From Fibrobacteria bacterium (GTDB taxonomy: Bacteria; Fibrobacterota; Chitinivibrionia; Chitinivibrionales; FEN-1185), in contig JBBIGR010000006.1 of assembly GCA_037447435.1 (NCBI GenBank), positions 94,136 through 158,135 of the forward strand: a stretch of DNA of 64,000 nt. Direction: 5' to 3'. Position numbers and translations under genes: made by a program. The notes below the pieces were generated by a model. It was given only the letters and a program-made list of their open reading frames with translations, ran no database searches and was not told the origin of the DNA. This document shows positions 2,418 to 41,297 of the stretch, piece by piece. How positions within the stretch are numbered: the stretch's first letter is position 1; every line of letters starts with the position of its first letter.

Positions 2418-4619
2418 ATGAACGATTTAAACCGAATAATAAAAATCCTTATCCTTAGTCTTTTTATCCTGCATTCGGCATTTGCTATTGACGATTCCTA
2501 TAAAACCACATTAACAACCCTTTGCGATGCTTTGCTCCCCACTCAAATCACCGACAAGACAAACGCAAATTACGGTGCGCTTATTTGCCCGTCGAAAAAT
2601 CCCGATGTCAACAAAATCCATTCGCGCGCTGCAGAAGCGGTATACCCTTTTGCCGTTGAGTATACCTTGACGGGGAACACAAAATACCGGGACGCGGCAG
2701 TCATTCTGGGAAACTGGCTCGTTACAATACAGGAAACAACGGGAAAAATCGGAGGGTGGAGCGAAGATTGGCCCGATCCGACACAGGCCGGTTGGTATGG
2801 AACAACGGCGGATCAATTGATTTCACTTGCCGGCGCATATCCCATCGTAAAACCATTTCTGAGCGCGACCGAAAGCGCCAACTGGGACAACGCAATAGGA
2901 AAAGCGGCGGACTATGTAAAAGGGAGTTTTCCCGTATCTAATGTAAATTACAACGCGATCGGCGGGGCTGCGCTTTTTCTCGCATCCACGGTCGTGGCAG
3001 CCCCGAAAACATCATGGGTCGCGAAAGCCGACACATTGATAACAAGGAATACGTTCGACAGCATCGGCACCGACAATTTGCTCCGCGGCGAGGGCAAGGG
3101 CGTTGACGAAGGGTACGATATGGCCCAAAGCATCGGCTACGTGGCGTTGTATTCGATTCTTGCGAAAAGTGCCGTTGCCAAACAGAAAGCAGCCGACATG
3201 CTGCACGCGCATTTCAATTTTGTCTATCCAAACGGCTCGGTGGACAATTCCTGGGGAACGCGGTCCTATAAATGGGGCTATGAAAGCGGGACAAAAACCG
3301 CTCCCGGCGTCTATTTCAGTTTTGCATTGCTTGCCGACGTCGACCCGGCCTTTGGTGCGGCCGGATTGCAATGCCTCCAATATCTCGGGACAAAATGCCT
3401 CGACAACGGCTGGGTCACCTACGGTCCGCATGCACATAAACATGCGTCAAGCAATCCGCCGTGCAATTACCAGACATTCGCTCGCGCCCAAAGTATCGCC
3501 CTTGCAATCGAATACGCTCCGTCGGCAACGGCGACTTCACCGTTTCCCGCACAAACATTGAACTGGTACAAATTTTTCCCTTTAATAAACGTTGCGGTCG
3601 TACGGACCAAAAACATCATGGCAACGGTTTCGGCGTACGGAGAAATAAGGACGTATTCTCGCAATACGGTTCCAAAGGGAGGGAGCGTATCCAACCTTTG
3701 GTATACGGGATTCGGCGATAACGGTTACTTGCAATCGTCGTCCGCAACGATTTACACACGAACGGAAACGATGCACATGCCGACCGAAGACAATCCGGTA
3801 CCGCTTCCGTTGACACCTCGAATAGAATGCACCGTGGCCGCATCCTACTACACGAACCTGTTTGAGACAAACGCAACCATGAACGTGACGCAAAACAGCG
3901 ACAATGTCGGCGTCACGACCTCGGGCAAGTTCACATCGCAAACCGGCACCACTGCGGGAATGAATTTCACGGTTTCCAACAAGTTTTTCGATTCCAAGGT
4001 GCAAAAGCAATATTCGGTTTCGGGAGCCGCAGGCTCGTTTAAAATCATTGAACCGTTTGTCAATGATTCCGGAACGGTTTTTACGAAATCGGGAACGAAC
4101 ACCGTTGCGATTACCCCAAAATCCGGACCGACGTGGACATTGACCGTAGACAGCGCGACCGTCCCTTATTCTTTGACAACCGGTACCGATTCGTCGAGAT
4201 ACTGGTGCCCCTTTCCGGGAATCGAAGCATATCCGGCAATCATCGCTTTCACCACGACCAACGCGAATACGCAAACGATAACGCTGTCGATAAGCGGTCC
4301 TGCAAACGTGCCTAGTATGTCGATTGCTACGGATGGTAAATTTCCGAACGCGACTCCCCCCTTAAAACTATTTCCCCGCAAAAACGGTATGATTGGGATT
4401 CAATGTCATCTTGACAAAGAAGCGTTTGTGGTAATCAACGCGTTTTCGATGAATGGAAAACATATAGCAACACCCTATGCCGGGCATCTGAACGCCGGGG
4501 TTTCGACTATTGGTTGGAACGGCAAAGATCCTGCGAATAGACCTGTTACACATGGCATTTGCATTTGCTCAATGAAAATCAACGGAGTACAAGCCGCTTT
4601 GGATATTTTGAGGCTGTAA
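2418..4619 (+). CDS. Secreted hypothetical protein; probable alpha-helical toroid plus beta-sandwich carbohydrate-active enzyme, with FlgD-Ig/T9SS-type CTD
   Basis: 733 aa with a signal peptide. Helical N-half (NVNYN, DEGY, DNSWGTRSYKW), beta-rich C-half, and WNGKD..RPVTHG C-terminal domain. Flanked by lyases and GH88. Confidence 0.6.
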   Translation: MNDLNRIIKILILSLFILHSAFAIDDSYKTTLTTLCDALLPTQITDKTNANYGALICPSKNPDVNKIHSRAAEAVYPFAVEYTLTGNTKYRDAAVILGNWLVTIQETTGKIGGWSEDWPDPTQAGWYGTTADQLISLAGAYPIVKPFLSATESANWDNAIGKAADYVKGSFPVSNVNYNAIGGAALFLASTVVAAPKTSWVAKADTLITRNTFDSIGTDNLLRGEGKGVDEGYDMAQSIGYVALYSILAKSAVAKQKAADMLHAHFNFVYPNGSVDNSWGTRSYKWGYESGTKTAPGVYFSFALLADVDPAFGAAGLQCLQYLGTKCLDNGWVTYGPHAHKHASSNPPCNYQTFARAQSIALAIEYAPSATATSPFPAQTLNWYKFFPLINVAVVRTKNIMATVSAYGEIRTYSRNTVPKGGSVSNLWYTGFGDNGYLQSSSATIYTRTETMHMPTEDNPVPLPLTPRIECTVAASYYTNLFETNATMNVTQNSDNVGVTTSGKFTSQTGTTAGMNFTVSNKFFDSKVQKQYSVSGAAGSFKIIEPFVNDSGTVFTKSGTNTVAITPKSGPTWTLTVDSATVPYSLTTGTDSSRYWCPFPGIEAYPAIIAFTTTNANTQTITLSISGPANVPSMSIATDGKFPNATPPLKLFPRKNGMIGIQCHLDKEAFVVINAFSMNGKHIATPYAGHLNAGVSTIGWNGKDPANRPVTHGICICSMKINGVQAALDILRL

Positions 4620-8625: not shown

Positions 8626-11600
8626 TTACTGAATAATGCGAACCATTTTCTGAATTCTTCCGCTTTGCGTGTTCAACCTGAGCATATACATCCCTGCCGG
8701 TAAACTGGTAAGAACAGCGTTAGGACCAATTGAGCCCGTAGCCACGATGTTTTTAACCAATGCACCTTTAACAGAATACATCGCAAGTTCATAGGAACCC
8801 GACGCAGGAAGTATGAATTGGATTTCATGCGAATTGACCGATGTCACATCGAGCTTATATTCCCGCATGTGTCGCGTTTGCACAACGTCGGTTGGCAGCG
8901 GTGCGGAAGCACCCATAGAAGCAAGGACACCGTAAACCTTGAATTCGAAAAGAGAATAACCGTAGGCGGTAGTACGCGCCGTACCGTTCATCCGGATATA
9001 CCGTGCGGAACCGCTTAGATTGGTGATATCGTCGGTACGCGCGCCGGTCGCCATATTCGTTTTGGTCGAAATGGCCGACCAGGTGGAACCATCGGTCGAC
9101 ACATCGATCGTGTAGTTCTTGGCGGAAGCAGCTTCCCATGTAAGTGTCACGCGGCTGATAGTATAGGTTGCGCCCAAATCAATGCGAATCCATTGCGGAT
9201 CGCTGAACAGGCTGGCCCAGCGGGTTGTCGAATTGCCGTCGTTGACATTGGATGCTTTGAGAAGCGTGCCGTTATTGGTTTCCTCACTCGATGCCAAAGC
9301 AGTTTTACCTTGCCCTATTTCAACGGGTGCCGGTACCGCAGCGGCAACGTCGAGGTAATTCAGGTTGAACCCGCCGGTGGTCATATTCATTTTTAACAAA
9401 TGATACCCCGCCGTAAGCGTTACCCCCTTGACCGGCAGGTCTTTCCAAACCTGATAGCCGGACGCGTCGGTAGAGGTGAAGGTTCCGATCGTTGCGCCGT
9501 CCACGGTCACGGTCATGGTCTTTGTGCCTGTTCCGCCGCAGGCCATTCTCGCGGTAAGGTCATAGGTTCCCGCCGCGGTAACATTGACATCATAGGCAAG
9601 CCACTCGCCTGCCGAAGTCCAACCGACATCGTACCCCCCGCCGGCATCCTGGGTGGCTTCGATATCCACATTGTCTGTTTTGTAAACGTTTCCGGAATTG
9701 CCCGTCGTCAGATCGTGATAGCCGACCCCTTCGCCGCCGGCATTGTAATCTTCGGCCTGGATGCGCCCCGGTAAAACGACGCCTTTTATGCCGTCGTTGT
9801 CGACAATGGTCAGCGTGGCCGTTGCCGGACTGCCCAAGATTGCCCCGCCGCTCACGGCGCTCAAGGTCAAATTCACGGTTTCATTGCTTTCCACCGCGGC
9901 ATCGTCCGTGATAGGCACGGTAAAGCTTTGACTTGTTACCCCTGCCGCAAACGTGAGCGTACCTGATACCGCGGCGTAATCCGACCCTGCGGTTGCGGTC
10001 CCGTTTGACGTTGCGTAATTGACCGTAACGGATCCGGTGCTGCCGCCCGTACGGTTAACCGTGATCGTTGCGGTACCGGCGTTTTCGTTGACAGAATAAG
10101 ACGTATTGCTGAATGCGAGCGTTCCGGGGACCGGGGTGCTTTTCCCGTAGACCTCGAACGAGTACAGTGAATAGCCATAGGTCGTCGTGCGGACGGTTCC
10201 GCTCATGCGAATATAGCGGGCAGAAGTCGCCAGATCGCTGATGTCGTCTGTCCGGGCTCCGGCAGCCATATTGGTTTTCGTCGATACCGTGGTCCAGGCG
10301 GAACCATCGCCCGACACATCGATGGTGTAATTCTTTGCAGACGCAGCTTCCCAATAGAGAACAACGCGATTAATGGTATTGATTGCGCCCAAATCGATTT
10401 TAATCCATTGCGGATCGGCATACGCGCTCGACCAACGAGTGGTACCATTCCCATCGACGGCATTGGCGGGAATATTGGTGGTGTTTTCATTGCTCGACGA
10501 TGTCACGGCCTTTCCACGCGCAAGGTCGGTCACTCCGTCATTGTCGATAAAAACCAGTTCGATTCCCGTGCCTGTTGCGGGATTGAGGTTTCTGCTGTAT
10601 TGACGGGCTGCGGCATTGTTCCAATGTTCGCAAACGCCAAGACTTGCCAACCGCGTCGTGTTGCTGCTGTGATTGGGATCATAAAAGGTCCCGGAGGGAG
10701 GATTATCGGCCTTAGCTCCTTCGATGAGGTAATCCTCGACTCCCGCCATTTGCGGGTATTTTCGGCTGTCGCCGTCGAGCTGCATGAGATCGAACATAAC
10801 GCTTTCGAGCGCGATCGGGTCCTGGGACCCGAACAAGCTCGACGTCCAGTCGTTGTAAAACGGAAAGGTTGTCCATTTACGGGGCGACACATCGTCGGGA
10901 TGCGCCCCGCTGTACAATCCGTCAACGAGACACAGCATTGTTTTTCCGCCGAGCTGGGCATGGCCGAGTAAATCCACCAAAACGCGATATTTTCCGGAAC
11001 CGGATTGATTGACCGGTAAGGATGTGTGCAGGTCATAATATCCGCTTTGTCCGGGCAGGCGATATAAAGAACCGAAATGGTTTTTTGCCACGCCCGTAAA
11101 TCCCGCCATTGAATGACTCTTGAAATTTGAAAAATTGATGAGGTAGGTGGCGTCGACATAATGCTGCGGGATATAATCCTGCGTAATGCCTGTAGGACGG
11201 GAGCTGAAATACATGGGAACGGACGACTTTGTCACCTTTGTCCTGCCGTTTGTTCCCTGATAATCCATATATTTGATATTCGGGAATTCGGCATGAACGT
11301 AATTGTAATATTCGTTGGGAAACAGGCAAATCGGGTCGCCGATCGCGATATCGGATTGCGCGACGCCGACCACGTTGACAAGCTGACGGAAAAGAGCCAT
11401 CATCATCATCGGGGACGTATTCATGTAATCGATTTTATTGACAAGGCTATAGGTGGATGTGCTTACGTTTCCTTCGGAGTAAATGCAGCCGACCATGTTC
11501 GCTTTAATTGCGATTTTTTCTCCCGCAGTATACCCGACATTACCTCTGCCATGCGTCGAATTGTAATAGCGGATAATCGCATCCCATGCCGCAGCATCGC

Positions 11601-12114
11601 TTGTTTTGCCCGTGAGCGATTGCAAAGTTTGAGACATCATTTTATCGACAGTCGCCTGGTCGGTATGCGAAGTTTCCCACAAATGTCCATTGCCGACGCC
11701 AGCCCAATTCGTGCTCTTTGAGTCATGCGTCCAAACGACGCGGCCGGGCATTGTTCCTTTTGCTGTTCCTACCGGTGCATTTGGCGTAGCAAGCGTTGCG
11801 GCCAAAGCAGGTTTGGACGGAGTGGTGAAAAAAATAGCGCCGAGAACAGCACCCATTAACAGACACCCTGTTGCAACAAGATAACGGGTTTGTTGAAAAG
11901 CCTTACGGGCTTTTTTGAAAAAAACCAAAGAGGAAAGGCTTCCGATCGTCCAAAGAATAAAGGTTGTGGCAATCGGTGCTGCTGCCCGAACGCAAGGATA
12001 ATTGATCCTGCTTGGTTTTGCGATAATACGCACTAAAATCCACACAAGAGAACCAAAACCTAACGTTGAAAAAAGAACAGACATCACAAAGTTATGCTTT
12101 TTGCGCATAAACAA
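8626..12114 (-). CDS. DUF362-domain protein with CBM32(F5/8)-Calx-beta-CBM6-like-CBM32 modules and CTD
   Basis: KIAIKAN and INFSNFKSH..GFTGVAKNHFG (DUF362); two DGN.TTRW.S...PQW..IDLG domains; TATAGSDY..GTLTFAAG (Calx-beta); RIQAEDY..GEWLAY (CBM6-like); GMYMLRL CTD. Start is TTG 12114 or ATG 12108. Confidence 0.82.
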   Translation of the reverse strand: MFMRKKHNFVMSVLFSTLGFGSLVWILVRIIAKPSRINYPCVRAAAPIATTFILWTIGSLSSLVFFKKARKAFQQTRYLVATGCLLMGAVLGAIFFTTPSKPALAATLATPNAPVGTAKGTMPGRVVWTHDSKSTNWAGVGNGHLWETSHTDQATVDKMMSQTLQSLTGKTSDAAAWDAIIRYYNSTHGRGNVGYTAGEKIAIKANMVGCIYSEGNVSTSTYSLVNKIDYMNTSPMMMMALFRQLVNVVGVAQSDIAIGDPICLFPNEYYNYVHAEFPNIKYMDYQGTNGRTKVTKSSVPMYFSSRPTGITQDYIPQHYVDATYLINFSNFKSHSMAGFTGVAKNHFGSLYRLPGQSGYYDLHTSLPVNQSGSGKYRVLVDLLGHAQLGGKTMLCLVDGLYSGAHPDDVSPRKWTTFPFYNDWTSSLFGSQDPIALESVMFDLMQLDGDSRKYPQMAGVEDYLIEGAKADNPPSGTFYDPNHSSNTTRLASLGVCEHWNNAAARQYSRNLNPATGTGIELVFIDNDGVTDLARGKAVTSSSNENTTNIPANAVDGNGTTRWSSAYADPQWIKIDLGAINTINRVVLYWEAASAKNYTIDVSGDGSAWTTVSTKTNMAAGARTDDISDLATSARYIRMSGTVRTTTYGYSLYSFEVYGKSTPVPGTLAFSNTSYSVNENAGTATITVNRTGGSTGSVTVNYATSNGTATAGSDYAAVSGTLTFAAGVTSQSFTVPITDDAAVESNETVNLTLSAVSGGAILGSPATATLTIVDNDGIKGVVLPGRIQAEDYNAGGEGVGYHDLTTGNSGNVYKTDNVDIEATQDAGGGYDVGWTSAGEWLAYDVNVTAAGTYDLTARMACGGTGTKTMTVTVDGATIGTFTSTDASGYQVWKDLPVKGVTLTAGYHLLKMNMTTGGFNLNYLDVAAAVPAPVEIGQGKTALASSEETNNGTLLKASNVNDGNSTTRWASLFSDPQWIRIDLGATYTISRVTLTWEAASAKNYTIDVSTDGSTWSAISTKTNMATGARTDDITNLSGSARYIRMNGTARTTAYGYSLFEFKVYGVLASMGASAPLPTDVVQTRHMREYKLDVTSVNSHEIQFILPASGSYELAMYSVKGALVKNIVATGSIGPNAVLTSLPAGMYMLRLNTQSGRIQKMVRIIQ

Positions 12115-12392
12115 GACGCTCCTTTAAATTTGGTAGGGAATCTGCAGGCTTTTGGCGAATGCCATCTAATATAACGGAATTTTGCCCCGTCTCAACATAA
12201 AAAAAAGTTACAAGAAAAGTCAAGAAAATAATAAAATCGCAATAATTTAATTTTTTTTATAAAAAAGGCAGGAAAAACCAATTTGACAATTCAATACTTT
12301 TTAGTCTTCCATTTTTCACGGAATCGTGGTATAATATAATATAGAAAAGCTCTTTTCAATGTGGAGGTCAACATTTAAAAAAAGGAAACATT

Positions 12393-14584: not shown

Positions 14585-15829
14585 TCACCGCCACTGGCTC
14601 AAATGCCGTTCTTTTTCGAAAACGTATTTAATAATTTGTTCCCTTTTCCGCTGTTCGATATTGACAAATTGTACATGATGCTTTATAAGCGTTTGGCCTT
14701 TTGCTTCTTTGAGGGTAAGATGGACGATTTTCCCGGTTATTCCCGCAAACGACGTCCCGGGAATGTCGAAATTGATCGAGATAAGATCGTTGAGGCGAAG
14801 CGAAGCTTCATTGACAAAACTCAATCCGCCGCCGCTGATGTCGGACATGCGGGTCGTGATTACCTGGCCGCGCTTGATTTCGCTTGATTCGGGATCTTTG
14901 GTCGAAAGCAGCCGAAACCGAAGCGGCAAACTCGCCTCGATGCGGACATATTGACGCAATTGATTCCGCTTGATTTCCATGGTATGCAAAAGGTCGATAT
15001 TGCCGACGTCTTTGACATTTGCAACCTTTACCTGGACACCGTACAACCCGTCGCTTTGCCGGGCAAAAATAAACCGGACGACCGAACCTTTTTCGATTCG
15101 ATAGACGTCTTCCTTGTCGACATCGTACTGGATAGTGAAGAAAAAGCCGTTATTGTCGACCACGGATACTTTATTGAAAATCGGTTTGCTCCCGTCTCTG
15201 CCGAAAAGAGAACCGCTTTGGCCGATGGCTATATTCCGTGTCGATACCAGCGGATGTTCGAGCGGCAAATGGGAAAAGCCGAGCTTCCTTCGCAGGTCGC
15301 TGAGGAGATGTTCTTCTTTTCCATCGGGCGAGATGCCGGGGTTGCTGCGCGCCAGTTCGTTGACGTATGATTCAACACATTTTTCAAACAGCTGCAAAGA
15401 CTGGAAAATCGTATGGGGTGCCATTACTTTTTCATGACCGATGAGGACGTTGAGCAGATCGCGCTCTTCATCTGTCAATCCATTCCGGGCCGAATTTTCA
15501 AAAAACAAGTCGACGGAATTGATTTTATCCTCGTTTGACTGGCGAAGCGAGCGGACAAAATAGGCAAGCATTCCGATCACAATTGCGACGATCATTCCGG
15601 ACCCGAAAATCAAAACGATAAAAATCCAACCATGGGTCCAATCGGATCGCGTTAGATCTTTTCCCGAAAAAGCATGATTGAGACCGGATACAAATTGCTT
15701 TTCCTGGTCCTGAGCGGCAACAGAGCCCGAACTGTCGACAACCCTGAAAATCGCGGATTTATCACTCGTCGCAACAGTCATAAGCAAAAGCACGGCAACA
15801 ATCGCGATACGCGAAAAGGCATGTCGCAT
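14585..15829 (-). CDS. Membrane-anchored PilZ-domain protein (YcgR/flagellar-brake-like)
   Basis: Signal-like segment and TM helix; RQYVR (RxxxR) and DISGGG c-di-GMP motifs. Confidence 0.82.
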   Translation of the reverse strand: MRHAFSRIAIVAVLLLMTVATSDKSAIFRVVDSSGSVAAQDQEKQFVSGLNHAFSGKDLTRSDWTHGWIFIVLIFGSGMIVAIVIGMLAYFVRSLRQSNEDKINSVDLFFENSARNGLTDEERDLLNVLIGHEKVMAPHTIFQSLQLFEKCVESYVNELARSNPGISPDGKEEHLLSDLRRKLGFSHLPLEHPLVSTRNIAIGQSGSLFGRDGSKPIFNKVSVVDNNGFFFTIQYDVDKEDVYRIEKGSVVRFIFARQSDGLYGVQVKVANVKDVGNIDLLHTMEIKRNQLRQYVRIEASLPLRFRLLSTKDPESSEIKRGQVITTRMSDISGGGLSFVNEASLRLNDLISINFDIPGTSFAGITGKIVHLTLKEAKGQTLIKHHVQFVNIEQRKREQIIKYVFEKERHLSQWR

Positions 15830-15937
15830 AACCAGAAAGACCCCTTTGTGATAATGATTATTCTTTATATAATACTATATTTTATCGTCAGATGTCGACA
15901 GATAGTTTACCGAGTTTTTTTTCACCCGATTTCGTGC

Positions 15938-15965
15938 GCAAGTTTTTTCGTAGAACTACCGATAT
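15938..15965 (+). promoter_or_regulatory. Candidate sigma28 (FliA) promoter for motAB
   Basis: GCAAGTTT-N12-ACCGATAT resembles TAAAGTTT-N11-GCCGATAA; about 150 bp upstream of motA. Confidence 0.45.
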
Positions 15966-16115
15966 AATAAATAGTTAGTGCATACTCGCGCAACAGATGA
16001 TATCATGAATAATAATTTCGGATTTTACCCGAAGATTTGCAATTCTTATATACAACCGAAAACCTTACTCGGCACTATTGCGCTGAAATTCTTTGCGATT
16101 TAAGGAGGTTCGTTC

Positions 16116-16889
16116 ATGGATCCGTCAACCATTCTTGGGCTCATTTTGGGTGTCAGTTTGTTACTGACAGGGTACATCATAGAACACGGTCAATTGGTGG
16201 CGCTCGTTGCCATAAGCCCCATGTTCATTGTATTCGGCGGAACGCTCGGTGCGTGTACCGTACAATTCACGTTAAAGGAAATATTCGGTATCCCCCGTTA
16301 CATTGCCGAATCGATGCAATTGCCCAAAGGAAATGACGCGGCGCTCAAGAAGCTCATAGAAACACTGGTCAATTTGGCGGAAAAGGCGCGGCGTGAAGGC
16401 GTTTTGAGTCTGGAATCGGACATCCAAGGCGAGCTGTCGGACAAGAAATACGATCCCAGCCTTCGCAAGGGACTACGGCTGATGGTTGACGGAAGTGAAC
16501 CGGAACTGATCAAGCATATGCTCGAAAACGAAATATCGATTTACGAAGCAAAGAAAAAACGCGAAGCAGGAATTTTCGAAGCGGCAGGCGGATTTTCGCC
16601 GACCATGGGTATCATCGGAACGGTTATGGGACTCATCCAGGTGCTCGGGAACCTTGCCGATGTGACAAAGCTCGCTCCGGCCGTGGCCGCAGCATTTATC
16701 GCGACGTTGTACGGCATATCATCTGCAAACCTTGTCTTTTTGCCCATCGGCATGAAACTTAAGGGAAAGCTGCAACAGGAAGTGCTGCAGAAGGAATTGA
16801 CTATCGAAGGCGTTATGTCGATACAGGCGGGTGAAAACCCGAGGATACTGAAGGAAAAACTCGACGTGTTCCTGTCGTCCAATAAATGA
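16116..16889 (+). CDS. motA: Flagellar stator protein MotA
   Basis: IVFGGTLGA, AEKARREGVLSLE, PTMGIIGTVMGLI, ATLYG, GENP. Confidence 0.95.
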   Translation: MDPSTILGLILGVSLLLTGYIIEHGQLVALVAISPMFIVFGGTLGACTVQFTLKEIFGIPRYIAESMQLPKGNDAALKKLIETLVNLAEKARREGVLSLESDIQGELSDKKYDPSLRKGLRLMVDGSEPELIKHMLENEISIYEAKKKREAGIFEAAGGFSPTMGIIGTVMGLIQVLGNLADVTKLAPAVAAAFIATLYGISSANLVFLPIGMKLKGKLQQEVLQKELTIEGVMSIQAGENPRILKEKLDVFLSSNK

Positions 16890-16956
16890 TACGGGAAAAG
16901 GATATCGCGGTCGTTCACACGGGATAAAAAAAACCGATTCAAAGTAAAGGTTTTTC

Positions 16957-17712
16957 ATGGCGAGAAAAAAAGAGCATGAGAAGGAGCCGAATGCCGAGCG
17001 ATGGCTTTTAAGCTATGCCGATTTCATTACGCTGTTGCTGGTATTCTTCATCATCATGTATTCCATGAGCAGCATTGACAAAGCGAAATTCGACCAGCTT
17101 GTCCAGGTTTTGAATCAGACATTCGGAGGTAATAAATCCGTTATCTCGATGAATAACAGCGGCATCATGCAGATGAACTTTTATCCGAGCCATTTAAAAA
17201 ACCGGCAGGAAAAAAACCTGTACGTAAAAACGGTTTCCGCATTGCAAAAGGAAATACAATCGAAGGATGTCCGGGTGACCGCCGACGAACGCGGCGTGGT
17301 GATCAGCCTGAATTCGGATTTTTATTTCGCACCCGGTTCCGCAGATCTTTCGGACAGCGCGGAAAACGTACTTGCAAAAGTCGCGGGAATTCTGCAAACG
17401 CAAACGAACGTCATCCGGGTCGAAGGACATACCGACAGTATTCCGATTTCACCCAGCAGTGCGCTTGCCCAGCGGTTTCCATCGAATTGGGAATTATCGT
17501 CGCAGCGCGCTATAAACACGGTTAAAATGCTGGAAAAGCAAGGGCTGCACAAAGGCAGGGCATGCGCCACCGCCTATGCCGATACGAAGCCGCTCAAATC
17601 GAACGACACCGTCGAAGGCCGTGCGGCGAACCGGCGGGTGGAAATCGTGATTATCAATCTGCCCGAAATCGAAAGATTATCGGACGTTGCAAAACCCCAC
17701 GAAGAATTGTAA
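16957..17712 (+). CDS. motB: Flagellar stator protein MotB
   Basis: WLLSYADFITLL with the essential Asp; OmpA-like EGHTD, NWELSSQRA, NRRVEI. Confidence 0.95.
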   Translation: MARKKEHEKEPNAERWLLSYADFITLLLVFFIIMYSMSSIDKAKFDQLVQVLNQTFGGNKSVISMNNSGIMQMNFYPSHLKNRQEKNLYVKTVSALQKEIQSKDVRVTADERGVVISLNSDFYFAPGSADLSDSAENVLAKVAGILQTQTNVIRVEGHTDSIPISPSSALAQRFPSNWELSSQRAINTVKMLEKQGLHKGRACATAYADTKPLKSNDTVEGRAANRRVEIVIINLPEIERLSDVAKPHEEL

Positions 17713-26219: not shown

Positions 26220-26533
26220 CAGATTGGGCAACATAAAGTAACCCCTTGTATTTTCATCAGTATGTCGGTTTTTCCCCGGTTACTTCTTGATAAGGACTGT
26301 AAACAACGAGGATACATTTTCTTTTACGCTTATCTGGAATTTCAAGCTATTATTAAAAAAAACGTTAGATTACAAACATATACCCATTTGTTCACAGTTT
26401 AAATCATCGATTCGTGAACAGTCGGGATAGCCCGTTTTCATAGTCAGTTTGTGTTTCGGGGGAATTTAAGCGGTTAGTTACCCGGTTAAGTGAAACAGAT
26501 CAAATTACTTTTTCTTTTTCAGGAGTGTTACTC

Positions 26534-28753
26534 ATGAGAAATGCAGTGTTGGGCATGCTTTTGCTTATTTCCGCGGTTTGCGGACAAAGCGTCTCCATTT
26601 CCGGAAAAGTCTCCAATTCCGGCGGACAAGGAATTGAGGGAGCAGTGGTAAAACTGTTCGCTCAATCCATGGCCTGCACAACCAATGCGGACGGATCGTA
26701 CACTTTGTCGGGATCCACCGGTATAAAGCCGTTTTCCTTGTCTCAAAAATTTAGCAGCATCGCTTATAAAAACGGTTCTTTTATTTTCAAATCGTCCTCT
26801 TTTGGACCTTTGTCGGTACGGCTTTACGACTTGAGCGGCAGAACCGTCGCACGGGTCTTTTCGGGATCGATCAATGCCGGTACTACGGCCATCCCCTTTT
26901 CTCTTGATCGCGTTTGCAAATCGGTGCTCATTTTGCGGGTTGCGATGGCGGGAAATGAGTTTGCCTATACGCTCGTACCCTCGAATGCAAAAACCTTTGA
27001 GATTTCCTCGATTCCTTCTTCACAAGCAGGATTGCAAAAAACATTGGCTACGGTAGATTGGCTGCAGGCAAGCAAGTCGGGCTATGCTGCAGGCATTCAG
27101 CAAATAACCTCTTATAGCGGGGTAATCAATTTTACACTTTCGGCGCCGACCGCCCCGAATTTCGGACCCAATGTAAAGATTTTCGACCCAACGATGTCCG
27201 CCAGCTCGATTCAATCGGGAATGGGCTTTTCGACAAATGAATTCAGCACCAATCGCGTAGCCTGGTTTTTCAAACCCGGAAGCTACAATCTTACGATTAC
27301 AACAAATTACTACATACAAGCCTATGGTCTCGGGGTTTCGCCTGAATCGACCCAGGTGACCGGTGCAGTGCAGAATACCGACGGAGGCCTTACTGCCTTC
27401 TGGCGCGGTGTCGAGGGTTTCACCGTAAACGGAAACGATACATGGGCAGTGTCCCAGGCGGATCCGTTCCGTCGCATGCATATAAAAGGCAATTTGAACC
27501 TCTGCAATAGCGGCGGAAGCGGCGGATTCGTATCCGACTGCAAAGTCGACGGTCAGATAGCTACCGGTTGCCAACAACAATTCTATTTCCGTAACAATAC
27601 TCTCGGAACGGTTAACGCAGGCGGCTGGAGCTTTTTATTTCAAGGTTGCGACAATCCGCCGACCGCGAACTGGCCGGGCGGTTCCATCAGCGTTGTCGCA
27701 AAGACCCCGCTGGTACGTGAAAAACCGTATGTCATTTTTGAGGGCGGAAGCTATGCGGTCTTTGTCCCTGCCTGGCGTACTACGTCGTCGGGAACAGACT
27801 GGTACAACCAAACCCCGCAGGGAGAGAGAATTCCTATCGATCAATTCTACATTGCGCAATCGTCTACCGATAACGCAACGACAATCAACGCCGCGCTCGC
27901 GGCAGGCAAAAACCTGATCCTTTCGCCCGGTATCTATCAGGTGAGTGCGCCCATTCTCGTCACCCGGCCCAATACGGTTGTGCTTGGCCTCGGTATGGCA
28001 ACCCTGAAACCGCAAAACGGCGTGATCGCATTGAAGACCGCGGACGTGCCCGGAATCATCATCTCCAATATCCTATTTGATGCCGGAACCGCTCAATCTC
28101 CTTGCCTGTTGCAAGTCGGCGATTCGGCCAGTACAAGCAATTACAGCACTAATCCTACTATCGTATGCGACATATTCGGCCGTATCGGCGGCGGCGGAAA
28201 CGCCCAGGCCAAAGTCCACGTAATCTTAAACAGCAACTATTCCATTCTCGATCATTGCTGGTTATGGCGTGCAGACCATGGTTCGGGCGCAGGCTGGACA
28301 TCGAATCCCTGCCCCAACGGTTTGATCGTCAATGGAAACAACTGCATCACCTACGGCCAAATGGTGGAGCACAATCAGCAGCATAACACGATATGGAACG
28401 GTAATAGCGGACAAATGTTTTTCTACCAGAACGAGCTTCCCTACGATGTCGCGACGCAGGCTGATTTTAAGGATGGTACAAAAAACGGGTGGTCGGCACT
28501 GTACGTGACACCCGGGGTGACCAAATTTGCCGGTTATAGTATTGGAATTTACTCATACTTTAACCGGACCTATGTCGAAGAGGCAAACGCCATCGAATGT
28601 CCCAAACTGCCCGGAATAGAAATTCATCACGTGGTCACCTTTTCACTGGGGAGCGATCAGGGACAGATCACGCATGTTGTCAATGACACGGGCGCTACGG
28701 CGAAATGGACCGCGACACCGATGATCAGGTTCGGCGATTATATCGGGCATTGA
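26534..28753 (+). CDS. Secreted GH55-like beta-1,3-glucanase with an N-terminal carboxypeptidase-regulatory-like/CTD-like module
   Basis: NFGPNV.IFDP, FWRGVE, WAVSQA.PFRRMHI, WLWRADHG and FYQNELPYD motifs as in actinobacterial-type GH55. Confidence 0.82.
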   Translation: MRNAVLGMLLLISAVCGQSVSISGKVSNSGGQGIEGAVVKLFAQSMACTTNADGSYTLSGSTGIKPFSLSQKFSSIAYKNGSFIFKSSSFGPLSVRLYDLSGRTVARVFSGSINAGTTAIPFSLDRVCKSVLILRVAMAGNEFAYTLVPSNAKTFEISSIPSSQAGLQKTLATVDWLQASKSGYAAGIQQITSYSGVINFTLSAPTAPNFGPNVKIFDPTMSASSIQSGMGFSTNEFSTNRVAWFFKPGSYNLTITTNYYIQAYGLGVSPESTQVTGAVQNTDGGLTAFWRGVEGFTVNGNDTWAVSQADPFRRMHIKGNLNLCNSGGSGGFVSDCKVDGQIATGCQQQFYFRNNTLGTVNAGGWSFLFQGCDNPPTANWPGGSISVVAKTPLVREKPYVIFEGGSYAVFVPAWRTTSSGTDWYNQTPQGERIPIDQFYIAQSSTDNATTINAALAAGKNLILSPGIYQVSAPILVTRPNTVVLGLGMATLKPQNGVIALKTADVPGIIISNILFDAGTAQSPCLLQVGDSASTSNYSTNPTIVCDIFGRIGGGGNAQAKVHVILNSNYSILDHCWLWRADHGSGAGWTSNPCPNGLIVNGNNCITYGQMVEHNQQHNTIWNGNSGQMFFYQNELPYDVATQADFKDGTKNGWSALYVTPGVTKFAGYSIGIYSYFNRTYVEEANAIECPKLPGIEIHHVVTFSLGSDQGQITHVVNDTGATAKWTATPMIRFGDYIGH

Positions 28754-39985: not shown

Positions 39986-40351
39986 ATGAAAGACGTGTAT
40001 GTTGATTTAAAGCAATACTTCAGCCTGATCGATAGCGCAGTTGTATGCGAAGGCAAAGGTGCGCAAGGAATTAAATATGCAAACAAGATATTTGCCATGT
40101 TTTATAAGGGAGATCTTATTTTGAAATTTAGCCCCGAAAGGGTTGTTGAATTAATAAAATCGGGCAAAGGAATTCCACATGCTCCGGGCACCGGAAAACC
40201 AATGAAGGACTGGGTAGCAATTCCTCATGCCAACAGTAAGGCATGGGTAGACCTGGCAACGGAATCTTTTAAATATGTAAACGACCACATAAACAATCGA
40301 GGAAACCATGTACGCTCCCCACGAAAACCGATACGAGTCGATGCGGTATAA
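39986..40351 (+). CDS. Small TfoX/YjbR-like hypothetical protein
   Basis: KIFAMF..DLILKF..RV.ELI..G.G....G.GKPMKDWVAI; GGAG RBS; overlaps the next gene by 44 nt. Confidence 0.65.
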   Translation: MKDVYVDLKQYFSLIDSAVVCEGKGAQGIKYANKIFAMFYKGDLILKFSPERVVELIKSGKGIPHAPGTGKPMKDWVAIPHANSKAWVDLATESFKYVNDHINNRGNHVRSPRKPIRVDAV

Positions 40352-41297
40352 CCGTTGCGGCAAAAGCGGATTGAAATTGCCGGCCATTTCCCTTGGTTTA
40401 TGGCATAATTTCGGCGGAGTTGACAATTTTGATAACAGCCGTTCGATGGCGCTTTATGCATTTGACAAGGGAATCACTTATTTCGACCTTGCAAACAATT
40501 ACGGGCCGCCGCCCGGTTCCGCAGAAGAGACGTTCAGCAACATCCTGCGGCAGGACCTTGGCCGGTTCCGCGACGAACTGATCATTTCGTCGAAGGCCGG
40601 TTATTTGATGTGGCCCGGGCCGTACGGAGAATGGGGATCGCGAAAATATCTTATCGCAAGCTGCGACCAGACGCTTCGTCGTTTGGGCCTGGACTATGTG
40701 GACATATTTTACCATCACCGTCCCGACCCGAAAACCCCGCTTGAGGAAAGCATGGCGGCCCTTGACCAAATCGTCAGAAGCGGCAAGGCGTTATATGCCG
40801 GCATATCGAATTACCCCCCGGACCTTACGGTAAAAGCCGCGGCGATTCTGAAAAAACTCGGCACCCCGTGTCTGATCCATCAAACTTGTTACAATTTGCT
40901 GGACCGCGAAGCGGAACAAGGCCTTCTTGCCACGCTCGGAAAAGAAGGCATCGGCTGCATCGTGTTTTCGCCCCTTGCCCAGGGAATATTGACAAATAAA
41001 TACCTCGGCGGAATACCGAAAGACTCCCGGGCCGCAAAACCGCACGGGTTTTTAAAGCCGGATGACATAACCCCATTGGTTATAAAAAAAGTAGCCGCGC
41101 TCGGCGAACTGGCACAATCGCGTGGTCAGACCCTCGCGCAAATGGCATTGGCATGGGTGCTTCGTCATGCAACCGTGACTTCGGCGATTGTCGGCGCAAG
41201 CCGTATTTCGCATATCGACGACGCAGTCAATACGCTCAAATGCCTCTCATTTACAACCGATGAATTGAAGGCCGTCGATTCGGTGCTTTGCGATTAG
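40308..41297 (+). CDS. gpr: Aldo/keto reductase, L-glyceraldehyde-3-phosphate reductase (YghZ/Gpr/MgrA)
   Basis: GLKLPAISLGLWHNFG, FDLANNYGPPPGSAE, SKAGY.MWPGPYGEWGSRKYL. Confidence 0.9.
   Translation: MYAPHENRYESMRYNRCGKSGLKLPAISLGLWHNFGGVDNFDNSRSMALYAFDKGITYFDLANNYGPPPGSAEETFSNILRQDLGRFRDELIISSKAGYLMWPGPYGEWGSRKYLIASCDQTLRRLGLDYVDIFYHHRPDPKTPLEESMAALDQIVRSGKALYAGISNYPPDLTVKAAAILKKLGTPCLIHQTCYNLLDREAEQGLLATLGKEGIGCIVFSPLAQGILTNKYLGGIPKDSRAAKPHGFLKPDDITPLVIKKVAALGELAQSRGQTLAQMALAWVLRHATVTSAIVGASRISHIDDAVNTLKCLSFTTDELKAVDSVLCD

Follow-up and report, generated by a model that had tools for sequence, protein, structure and literature searches.

Architecture of the DUF362 gene

The stretch of DNA analyzed here (the window) comprises 64,000 nucleotides of contig JBBIGR010000006.1 from a Fibrobacteria bacterium and carries on its reverse strand a gene for a large, putatively exported protein, in which a domain of the DUF362 family (PF04015) precedes several carbohydrate-binding modules (CBMs). 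The genome assembly amounts to 5.0 Mb and is 99.6% complete. Coordinates refer to the whole window, and residues are counted from the TTG codon at position 12114. The open reading frame (8626 to 12114, reverse strand) is intact and specifies 1162 amino acids if begun at this TTG. The ATG at position 12108 appears to be the likelier start, giving 1160 amino acids, since the motif AAGGAG lies 10 nt before it and the database protein (P0002) also has 1160 residues. The following features were assigned to the gene, all of them on the reverse strand:

8626..12108, reverse strand: whole gene, 1160 amino acids from ATG 12108; the reading frame reaches two codons further, to TTG 12114
12119..12124, reverse strand: Shine-Dalgarno-like AAGGAG, 10 nt before ATG 12108, read from the sequence
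11800..12108, reverse strand: three-helix membrane leader, residues 3-105, ending in Ala-Leu-Ala (likely signal-peptidase site), with no twin-arginine motif and no Pfam match; assigned by hydropathy and model helices with a predicted local distance difference test (pLDDT) score of ~90
11974..12042, reverse strand: conserved leader core W25-R29...K33-P-S-R36-x-x-Y-P-C41...P47, from conservation in 123 sequences
10534..11799, reverse strand: DUF362 domain, residues 106-527, with the predicted fold of the LarA N-domain and family-specific extensions; assigned by Pfam, homology, model and structure search
11497..11505, reverse strand: invariant K204-x-N206 (each 132/132), placed by profile alignment on the Asp72 region of LarA
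11083..11115, reverse strand: H334-x9-K344 (131/132 and 132/132), putative equivalents of LarA His174 (catalytic) and Lys184 (cofactor tether); in-register but weak alignment, E 0.0048
11026..11028, reverse strand: H363 (129/132), probable equivalent of the LarA nickel ligand His200, judged by spacing beyond the aligned stretch
10147..10530, reverse strand: CBM32 (F5/8 type C) module 1, from Pfam; closest solved relatives are the chitosan-binding DD1/DD2 (4zy9, E 3e-31)
9793..10125, reverse strand: Calx-beta spacer, from Pfam
9337..9774, reverse strand: CBM6-type module, from Pfam (2y8k, E 2e-26)
8923..9324, reverse strand: CBM32 module 2, from Pfam, 65% identical to module 1
8629..8847, reverse strand: type IX secretion system (T9SS)-type C-terminal sorting domain, weak and below the curated cut-offs of Pfam and TIGR04183; a SprA-family gene is present in the genome

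The Pfam scan confirmed the domain order given in the original prediction, namely DUF362, CBM32, Calx-beta, CBM6, CBM32 and a T9SS-type tail, the latter being weak. The DUF362 match covers residues 309-441 with 40.4 bits (gathering cut-off 24), F5/8 type C was matched twice (E 9e-45), Calx-beta at residues 664-774 (E 9e-28) and CBM6/CBM35 at residues 812-923 (E 2.5e-14). The Por secretion tail at residues 1103-1157 reached 18.4 bits in Pfam (cut-off 27) and 21.9 bits with TIGR04183 (cut-off 23); the SprA-family gene is a translocon gene, and T9SS-type tails have been proposed on Fibrobacter enzymes (PMC6851124). The assignment of the N-terminal domain to DUF362 held, but the homologous unit spans residues ~106-527 and extends far beyond the Pfam match: with ~420 residues (422 in this protein) the conserved unit is twice as long as the Pfam model. 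The N-terminus itself represents a conserved three-helix leader and not a plain signal peptide.

A search with the N-terminal 506 residues yielded 1773 proteins of 639-2034 amino acids among 7991 scored candidates, and residues 106-527 retrieved 653 clusters at E 1e-30 among 1.84 billion representatives. Carriers of this subfamily are rare in each phylum, with 18 in 151 genomes of the own phylum, 6 in 221 of the Verrucomicrobiota and 5 in 241 of the Planctomycetota. The own genome contains 13 Pfam DUF362 matches and two further genes detected by the subfamily profile; four belong to the subfamily of the window gene. The two genes missed by Pfam are located at G000:C9:42881-44617 and G000:C27:58182-59240, giving a total of ~15 DUF362-like genes. 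Among the more distant architectures, the protein P0122 (1404 amino acids) begins with a signal peptide, continues with three tandem subfamily domains and ends in a transmembrane helix followed by a short basic tail; it retains the H-x9-K motif and the later His, and its sequence gives the impression of a eukaryotic type I membrane protein. In P0108, P0048, P0229 and P0238, the domain is either fused to a thioredoxin-like (AhpC/redoxin) domain or embedded in long secreted proteins of the planctomycete type. A conserved gene neighbourhood across phyla was not found apart from the lactonase genes described below, in a clustering that was noisy with antisense reading frames.

Predicted fold and conserved residues of the DUF362 domain

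The domain was modelled from an alignment of 132 sequences with a pLDDT of 97 and a predicted template modelling (pTM) score of 0.95. The ten best rows of a Foldseek search with this model were all LarA-family entries (best E 6e-6, TM-score ~0.33), and an independent structural aligner applied to 48,161 chains retrieved five LarA-family chains with Z 12.2-13.5 and a root-mean-square deviation of 3.2-3.9 over 209-225 aligned residues, the next best match after the LarA family reaching Z 5.7. The suspected similarity to LarA-type folds was thus borne out on the predicted model. Four of the five structural matches stop at LarA residue 262-288, the end of the N-domain, which corresponds to model residue ~345. 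According to the model, the substrate-binding C-domain of LarA is absent from the DUF362 protein, and the CBMs come after the domain instead. Searches of the PDB sequences with the domain or with its 132-sequence profile gave no significant match, and Lar_N (PF09861) had no match in this protein at E 0.1, the one Lar_N match of the genome being another gene. DUF362 and LarA (superfamily structures PDB 5HUQ, 7S91, 9EIA, 4NAR and 9Q3J) are placed in one Pfam clan, CL0471 (PMC11770544, PMC7955657), and the kinship itself is already known.

In LarA, Arg75, Lys184 and His200 bind the nickel-pincer nucleotide (NPN), and Asp72, His108, His174 and Lys298 serve catalysis (PMC7583248). A weak profile alignment with 20 LarA homologues drawn from 30 loci (E 0.0048, probability 7%) sets H334 on His174, K344 on Lys184 and N206 on Asp72; its columns contain no conserved His or Arg as counterparts of His108 and Arg75. 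K204, N206, K344 and N345 are present in all 132 sequences, H334 in 131, D260, H363 and D381 in 129 and K332 in 128. H363 is located at Lys+19 and outside the aligned stretch, compared with Lys+16 for His200 of LarA, and is the probable equivalent of this nickel ligand.

The domain resembles the cofactor half of LarA and fails LarA-family membership. What both share is the predicted fold of the N-terminal cofactor domain, the equivalents of His174 and Lys184, the probable equivalent of His200 and the Pfam clan, whereas the DUF362 protein lacks His108, Arg75 and the C-domain, shows 8-17% identity in structural alignments, and adds a membrane leader, CBMs and a sorting tail. DUF362 is accordingly an uncharacterised sister family of LarA. 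The window protein is not regarded as a LarA racemase, because the equivalents of His108 and Arg75 are not kept. Another reading is that the exported protein uses NPN to epimerise at C2 or racemise sugar acids, either aldonates or acids derived from uronates, and would act after a lactonase in the manner of the LarA-family gluconate epimerases. The predicted LarA fold with its three key residues is in favour of this. Such a reaction would be redox-neutral and require no extracellular acceptor, the lactonase partners fit this order as well, and K204, D260 and K332, invariant or nearly so, could stand in for the missing residues. However, the established mechanism requires two histidines (PMC12611868), the substrate-binding C-domain is absent along with both residue equivalents, and no link to uronate genes was detected in 94 related loci. 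We consider an epimerase unlikely.

A reading of the protein as an iron-sulphur protein was rejected, as no ferredoxin family was found in the protein or in the top-25 family lists of 150 representatives (7, 19 and 2 rarer families fall outside these lists).

Proposed reaction, cofactor genes and lactonase partners

The best explanation, held tentatively and with a probability of about 0.35, is that the window gene encodes an exported pincer-nucleotide hydride-transfer enzyme that makes sugar lactones and works like NphT or GFOR. In this scheme, NPN or a close variant would be tethered to Lys344, His363 would bind the nickel and His334 would act as the single base. A small sugar would be oxidised at C1 to the lactone outside the cell, in a one-way reaction on one substrate from which the hydride would be passed to a second molecule (dismutase or transhydrogenase), and a partner lactonase would open the lactone. 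One-way hydride transfer is proposed because of the one base, the open site without the LarA lid and the lactonase partners; racemisation is not expected, since His108, Arg75 and the LarA C-domain are missing. By means of its C-terminal tail, the enzyme would reach the surface, and the CBMs may keep it there in proximity to a polysaccharide under breakdown. The redox or epimerase chemistry put forward in the original prediction appears plausible, with lactonase fusions and neighbours providing a link to sugars. Export of the protein is likewise supported, as is a probable enzymatic role of its domain with the predicted LarA fold.

Similar chemistry is known from unrelated proteins. NphT is an NPN-dependent hydride transferase of the aldo-keto reductase family that converts aldoses into lactone and alditol (PMC13524815); the text of that paper makes no mention of a signal peptide or the periplasm. 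The proposed chemistry would share with NphT the covalent pincer cofactor on a Lys/His pair, the conversion of an aldose into a lactone and the hydride transfer to a second molecule, whereas NphT has an unrelated TIM-barrel fold and is encoded beside larBCE. Periplasmic hydride transfer is carried out by glucose-fructose oxidoreductase (GFOR) of Zymomonas and aldose-aldose oxidoreductase (AAOR) of Caulobacter, of which AAOR is exported and encoded beside a gluconolactonase gene (PMC4628093). Like the proposed enzyme, both are exported sugar oxidoreductases, but they belong to the Gfo/Idh/MocA family, are exported by the twin-arginine translocation (Tat) pathway and are unrelated in sequence to DUF362. 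GFOR and AAOR carry bound NADP. No cofactor or reaction is assigned to DUF362 in the literature found, most subscription papers being outside its scope. The family is absent from the main text and from seven readable supplements, out of 12, of PMC13524815, of which the other supplements, the main supplementary PDF and the co-occurrence tables could list it, and from two supplements of PMC7583248. The nickel-pincer cofactor is made by many prokaryotes in which no user of it is known (PMC13524815).

The genes larB, larC and larE of the own genome each scored over the cut-off and are scattered. Its one LarA homologue (G000:C2:199965-201236), which resembles 4NAR, could already account for the retention of larBCE; by eye, it sits among genes resembling those for uronate isomerase, gluconokinase and 6-phosphogluconate dehydrogenase. 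Fifty carrier genomes were drawn from 80 loci, one per genome and with preference for longer contigs, and larE was found in 44 of them, larC in 26 and LarA-family genes in 43. The 24 carriers devoid of larC are planctomycete-labelled in 22 cases, mainly from one lineage. Of the 24, 22 contain larE and 20 LarA-family genes, and several of the latter show the full H-x9-K-x15-H motif. Where larB was checked in this group, it was present in five of five genomes, with no PF01969 match. G049, G017, G019, G020 and G032 contain larB and larE over the cut-off and gave no LarC match with TIGR00299 or PF01969, and four of these genomes also have LarA-family genes; G049, a single chromosome of 7.5 Mb, combines larB and larE with three LarA-family genes and five subfamily members. 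Three further planctomycete carriers all have larE. No LarC substitute was seen beside larB or larE among the open reading frames of ten stretches of 16-18 kb from five larC-less genomes, which were read by eye and without a Pfam scan. These gene sets suggest that the larC-less planctomycetes either insert nickel with an enzyme that escapes recognition or use a cofactor free of nickel. Because 20 of the 24 genomes hold LarA-family genes, the larC gap is not specific to DUF362, and nickel is probably inserted by an unrecognised route. Among the 151 genomes of the own phylum, larC occurs in all 18 carriers versus 87 of 133 non-carriers, at least three of these 18 carriers being also part of the sample of 50. 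The link between the DUF362 subfamily and the lar genes is suggestive.

With respect to lactonases, an SMP-30/gluconolactonase domain (PF08450) is carried by 64 of the best 120 matches, mostly from one lineage. A tree of 159 sequences was computed from the 150 representatives and 12 added sequences (six of them for their lactonase tails), three of the 162 being dropped as partial. SMP-30 fusions occupy at least three separate places in this tree, the deep nodes of which are weakly supported, and one fusion involves a second lactonase family, PF10282; P0040 and P0112 are examples of natural DUF362-lactonase fusions. Within the 94 related loci, SMP-30 is fused in 23 and encoded by a separate gene in 13, adding up to 27 loci overall from two phyla; three motifs that we take to form the calcium site are kept in 33 of 36 SMP-30 copies. 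Six planctomycete genomes, in three of which the fusion was verified by position, hold just 2-4 SMP-30 genes each, which argues against SMP-30 as a promiscuous appendage. SMP-30 was found in 13 of 28 further carriers with 21 matches, of which 4 directly adjoin a subfamily member or form one protein with it. Three of these 4 are each the sole SMP-30 gene of a genome from the own order and touch the subfamily member in an upstream, a downstream and a convergent arrangement. The only SMP-30 gene of the own genome, with a signal peptide, follows another, Tat-type DUF362 paralogue (G000:C25:2747-5972). Since lactones also open spontaneously, the partner lactonase may be optional. As separate observations, the Tat-type paralogue has Asn at the position of His334, as in the single-histidine LarA group, and in two carriers (G262:C36:10822-13754 and G649:C91:46517-51188) the distance between an SMP-30 gene and larE amounts to 1.4 kb and 3.2 kb.

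Several data weigh against the proposed nickel-dependent lactone-forming enzyme. The LarA profile match has a probability of 7%, and larC is absent in 24 of the 50 carriers. Conversely, larC is found in 44 of 50 non-carriers of the own order, and larE of Verrucomicrobiota in 133 of 215 non-carriers versus 4 of 6 carriers; lar genes are thus widespread among non-carriers, which makes the co-occurrence test weak. In G389, represented by a contig of 5.96 Mb out of ~6.0 Mb, a member keeps all three residues, and neither larB, larC nor larE was matched. Bacteroides thetaiotaomicron has a DUF362 match over the cut-off, yet is not among the controls with larC, and a lar gene lies nearby in only 1 of the 94 related loci. 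Lactonase fusions amount to only 4 of the 150 representatives (three SMP-30, one PF10282). Of the 21 SMP-30 matches in the further carriers, 17 have no DUF362 gene within ~1.5 kb, and in these 17 loci no other DUF362 gene was found beside SMP-30 either. Moreover, SMP-30 was not matched at E 1e-20 in 11 of 17 carriers of the own phylum, and the window gene itself has no lactonase neighbour. With regard to export, a twin-arginine motif is absent here and not conserved in 30 aligned leaders, and some relatives hold the domain deep inside long secreted proteins, which is hard to reconcile with cytoplasmic loading.

These counts bear on two other explanations. The same fold, probably still an enzyme and acting on a sugar or not, might hold a cofactor other than NPN, such as a nickel-free product of LarB and LarE, another pyridine nucleotide or a metal ion bound by the conserved His, Lys and Asp residues. 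This would account for the larE genes in 22 of the 24 larC-less carriers and for larB without PF01969 in the five genomes tested, and it agrees with the lack of lar genes in G389, the DUF362 gene of B. thetaiotaomicron and the attachment of the same CBMs to a subtilase. The LarA-family genes in 20 of the 24 larC-less genomes, several with the full motif, speak against it, as does the fact that all characterised LarA-fold enzymes in the literature covered use NPN; we regard a different cofactor as somewhat unlikely. Alternatively, the protein might lack catalytic activity and serve at the surface to bind or scavenge nickel, the pincer cofactor or a related nucleotide. This would fit the retention of the cofactor-binding residues with the loss of half of the catalytic set, a member in a genome devoid of lar genes and the three tandem copies in the membrane-anchored P0122. 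Such a role seems improbable, since the domain is fused to two lactonase families and precedes CBMs and sorting tails, as is typical of catalytic domains, and since many polar residues beyond the cofactor set are invariant.

Membrane leader, carbohydrate-binding modules and neighbouring genes

The leader core is more conserved than the domain (0.72 vs 0.60), with W25, R29, P34, R36, P40, C41 and P47 being invariant in 123 sequences. The motif W-x3-R-x3-K-P-S-R-x2-Y-P-C starts 105 of the 150 representatives, many others being truncated or provided with other export signals. In 20 genomes, 33 leader matches were obtained, which stand directly before the domain wherever this was checked (five of five in G049, four of four in the own genome), and none of 81 matches in the 94 related loci belonged to any other protein. 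The leader, for which Pfam contains no match, was modelled as three long helices with a pLDDT of ~90. Leader and domain together gave a pTM of 0.88, compared with ~0.8 estimated for an unplaced leader, which is a weak hint; a complex prediction of leader with domain scored 0.01 (mark 0.32) and is no evidence either way. Foldseek with leader plus domain returned LarA again and nothing for the leader. A twin-arginine motif is present in seven other DUF362-like paralogues of the genome. In the C48 paralogue, an in-frame TGA (G000:C48:13742-13744) occurs inside the leader at an invariant Arg, the rest of the 1460-codon frame being open; judged from the sequence, it is a nonsense change or an assembly error. 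Selenocysteine in the leader was rejected, as this TGA falls on the invariant Arg and not on Cys.

Cleavage of the leader would take place after Ala-Leu-Ala at residues 103-105, since the sorting tail is incompatible with an uncut inner-membrane anchor. The role of the leader would then be transient, most simply in cofactor loading: the three helices may retain the chain at the inner membrane after its export through Sec, until the cofactor has been inserted, and would be cut off thereafter. In its furthest form, the proposal is that the DUF362 subfamily might constitute the first class of nickel-pincer enzymes located at the surface, where it would oxidise sugars in partnership with secreted lactonases. 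It would be loaded outside the inner membrane by a cleaved leader with invariant Arg, Pro and Cys and would need a route for export or sharing of the cofactor, many planctomycete hosts finishing the cofactor without a recognisable LarC. In this full form, the proposal is doubtful. If true, it would provide a new, extracellular setting for the rare nickel-pincer cofactor, equip polysaccharide-degrading anaerobes with a further class of extracellular nickel enzymes, and raise the questions of the route by which a protein exported through Sec acquires an organometallic cofactor and of the factor that provides nickel insertion in genomes with larA, larB and larE that are devoid of larC. A secreted, single-domain and well-modelled member, with a named Lys, two His and a lactonase hint at the substrate, makes the matter testable with existing larBCE co-expression systems.

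The window gene had initially been regarded as a candidate for a new class of glycan-acting, carbohydrate-active enzymes next to a uronate lyase cluster. This reading was considered here as an enzyme for polymers such as alginate that would work together with the neighbouring lyases. Its three CBM-type modules and sorting tail are in favour of this, as are the CBM fusions that arose repeatedly on the tree (at least five origins for CBM32/CBM6 and two for CBM9) and the lyases nearby in the own genome. Fusions of DUF362 with CBMs do exist, but they are few: among the 150 representatives, the top-25 lists contain CBM9 on 9, CBM6 on 6, F5/8 on 4, dockerin on 9 and the Por tail on 9, and most representatives have no CBM and instead spacers, sorting tails or nothing recognised. 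Pfam and NCBIfam gave no catalytic family of glycoside hydrolases, polysaccharide lyases, carbohydrate esterases or auxiliary activities in this protein. The same CBM32/CBM6 modules are found in the own genome on a subtilase (51-67% identical) and on proteins without a recognised catalytic domain, and LarA-fold enzymes act on small acids. Furthermore, the CBM32 modules are nearest to chitosan-binding and not to alginate-binding ones, their closest solved relatives by sequence being DD1 and DD2 of a Paenibacillus chitosanase (PDB 4ZY9 and 4ZZ5). The position that we take to be Glu36 of DD1 is occupied by Tyr in module 1. The chitosan-binding function of DD1/DD2 has been described (PMC5651945), and DUF362-CBM9-dockerin proteins from gut enrichments were flagged in 2017 as candidate carbohydrate-active proteins (PMC5742341). 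The latter likewise combine DUF362 with a CBM and an anchoring module, and the CBM9 fusions fall in this subfamily; they differ in the CBM set, and the accessible part of PMC5742341 proposes no mechanism, fold or cofactor.

Membership in the lyase cluster was not supported either. Upstream on the contig, two genes of the Alginate_lyase family and a GH88-like gene were identified by Pfam, and a convergent, unrelated gene of the rsuA type separates them from the DUF362 gene. Neither the two lyases, the GH88-like protein nor a 733-residue protein of this cluster has a homologue in the 94 related loci (1.35 Mb). With 0 of 94 loci syntenic, a polymer-acting enzyme class is very unlikely.

The 733-residue protein (window 2418-4619, forward strand) is secreted and has no match in Pfam, NCBIfam or the PDB sequences except for a weak FlgD tail; by its sequence, it qualifies better than the DUF362 gene as a possible new enzyme acting on polysaccharides. 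Elsewhere in the window, positions 26525-28753 (forward strand) comprise a reading frame of 742 amino acids with no Pfam match at E 1e-8, and positions 40308-41297 (forward strand) encode an aldo-keto reductase. The region 14585-17712 contains a gene for a PilZ-domain membrane protein followed by a motA/motB-like pair, and then comes the ATP synthase operon, the latter as read by eye.

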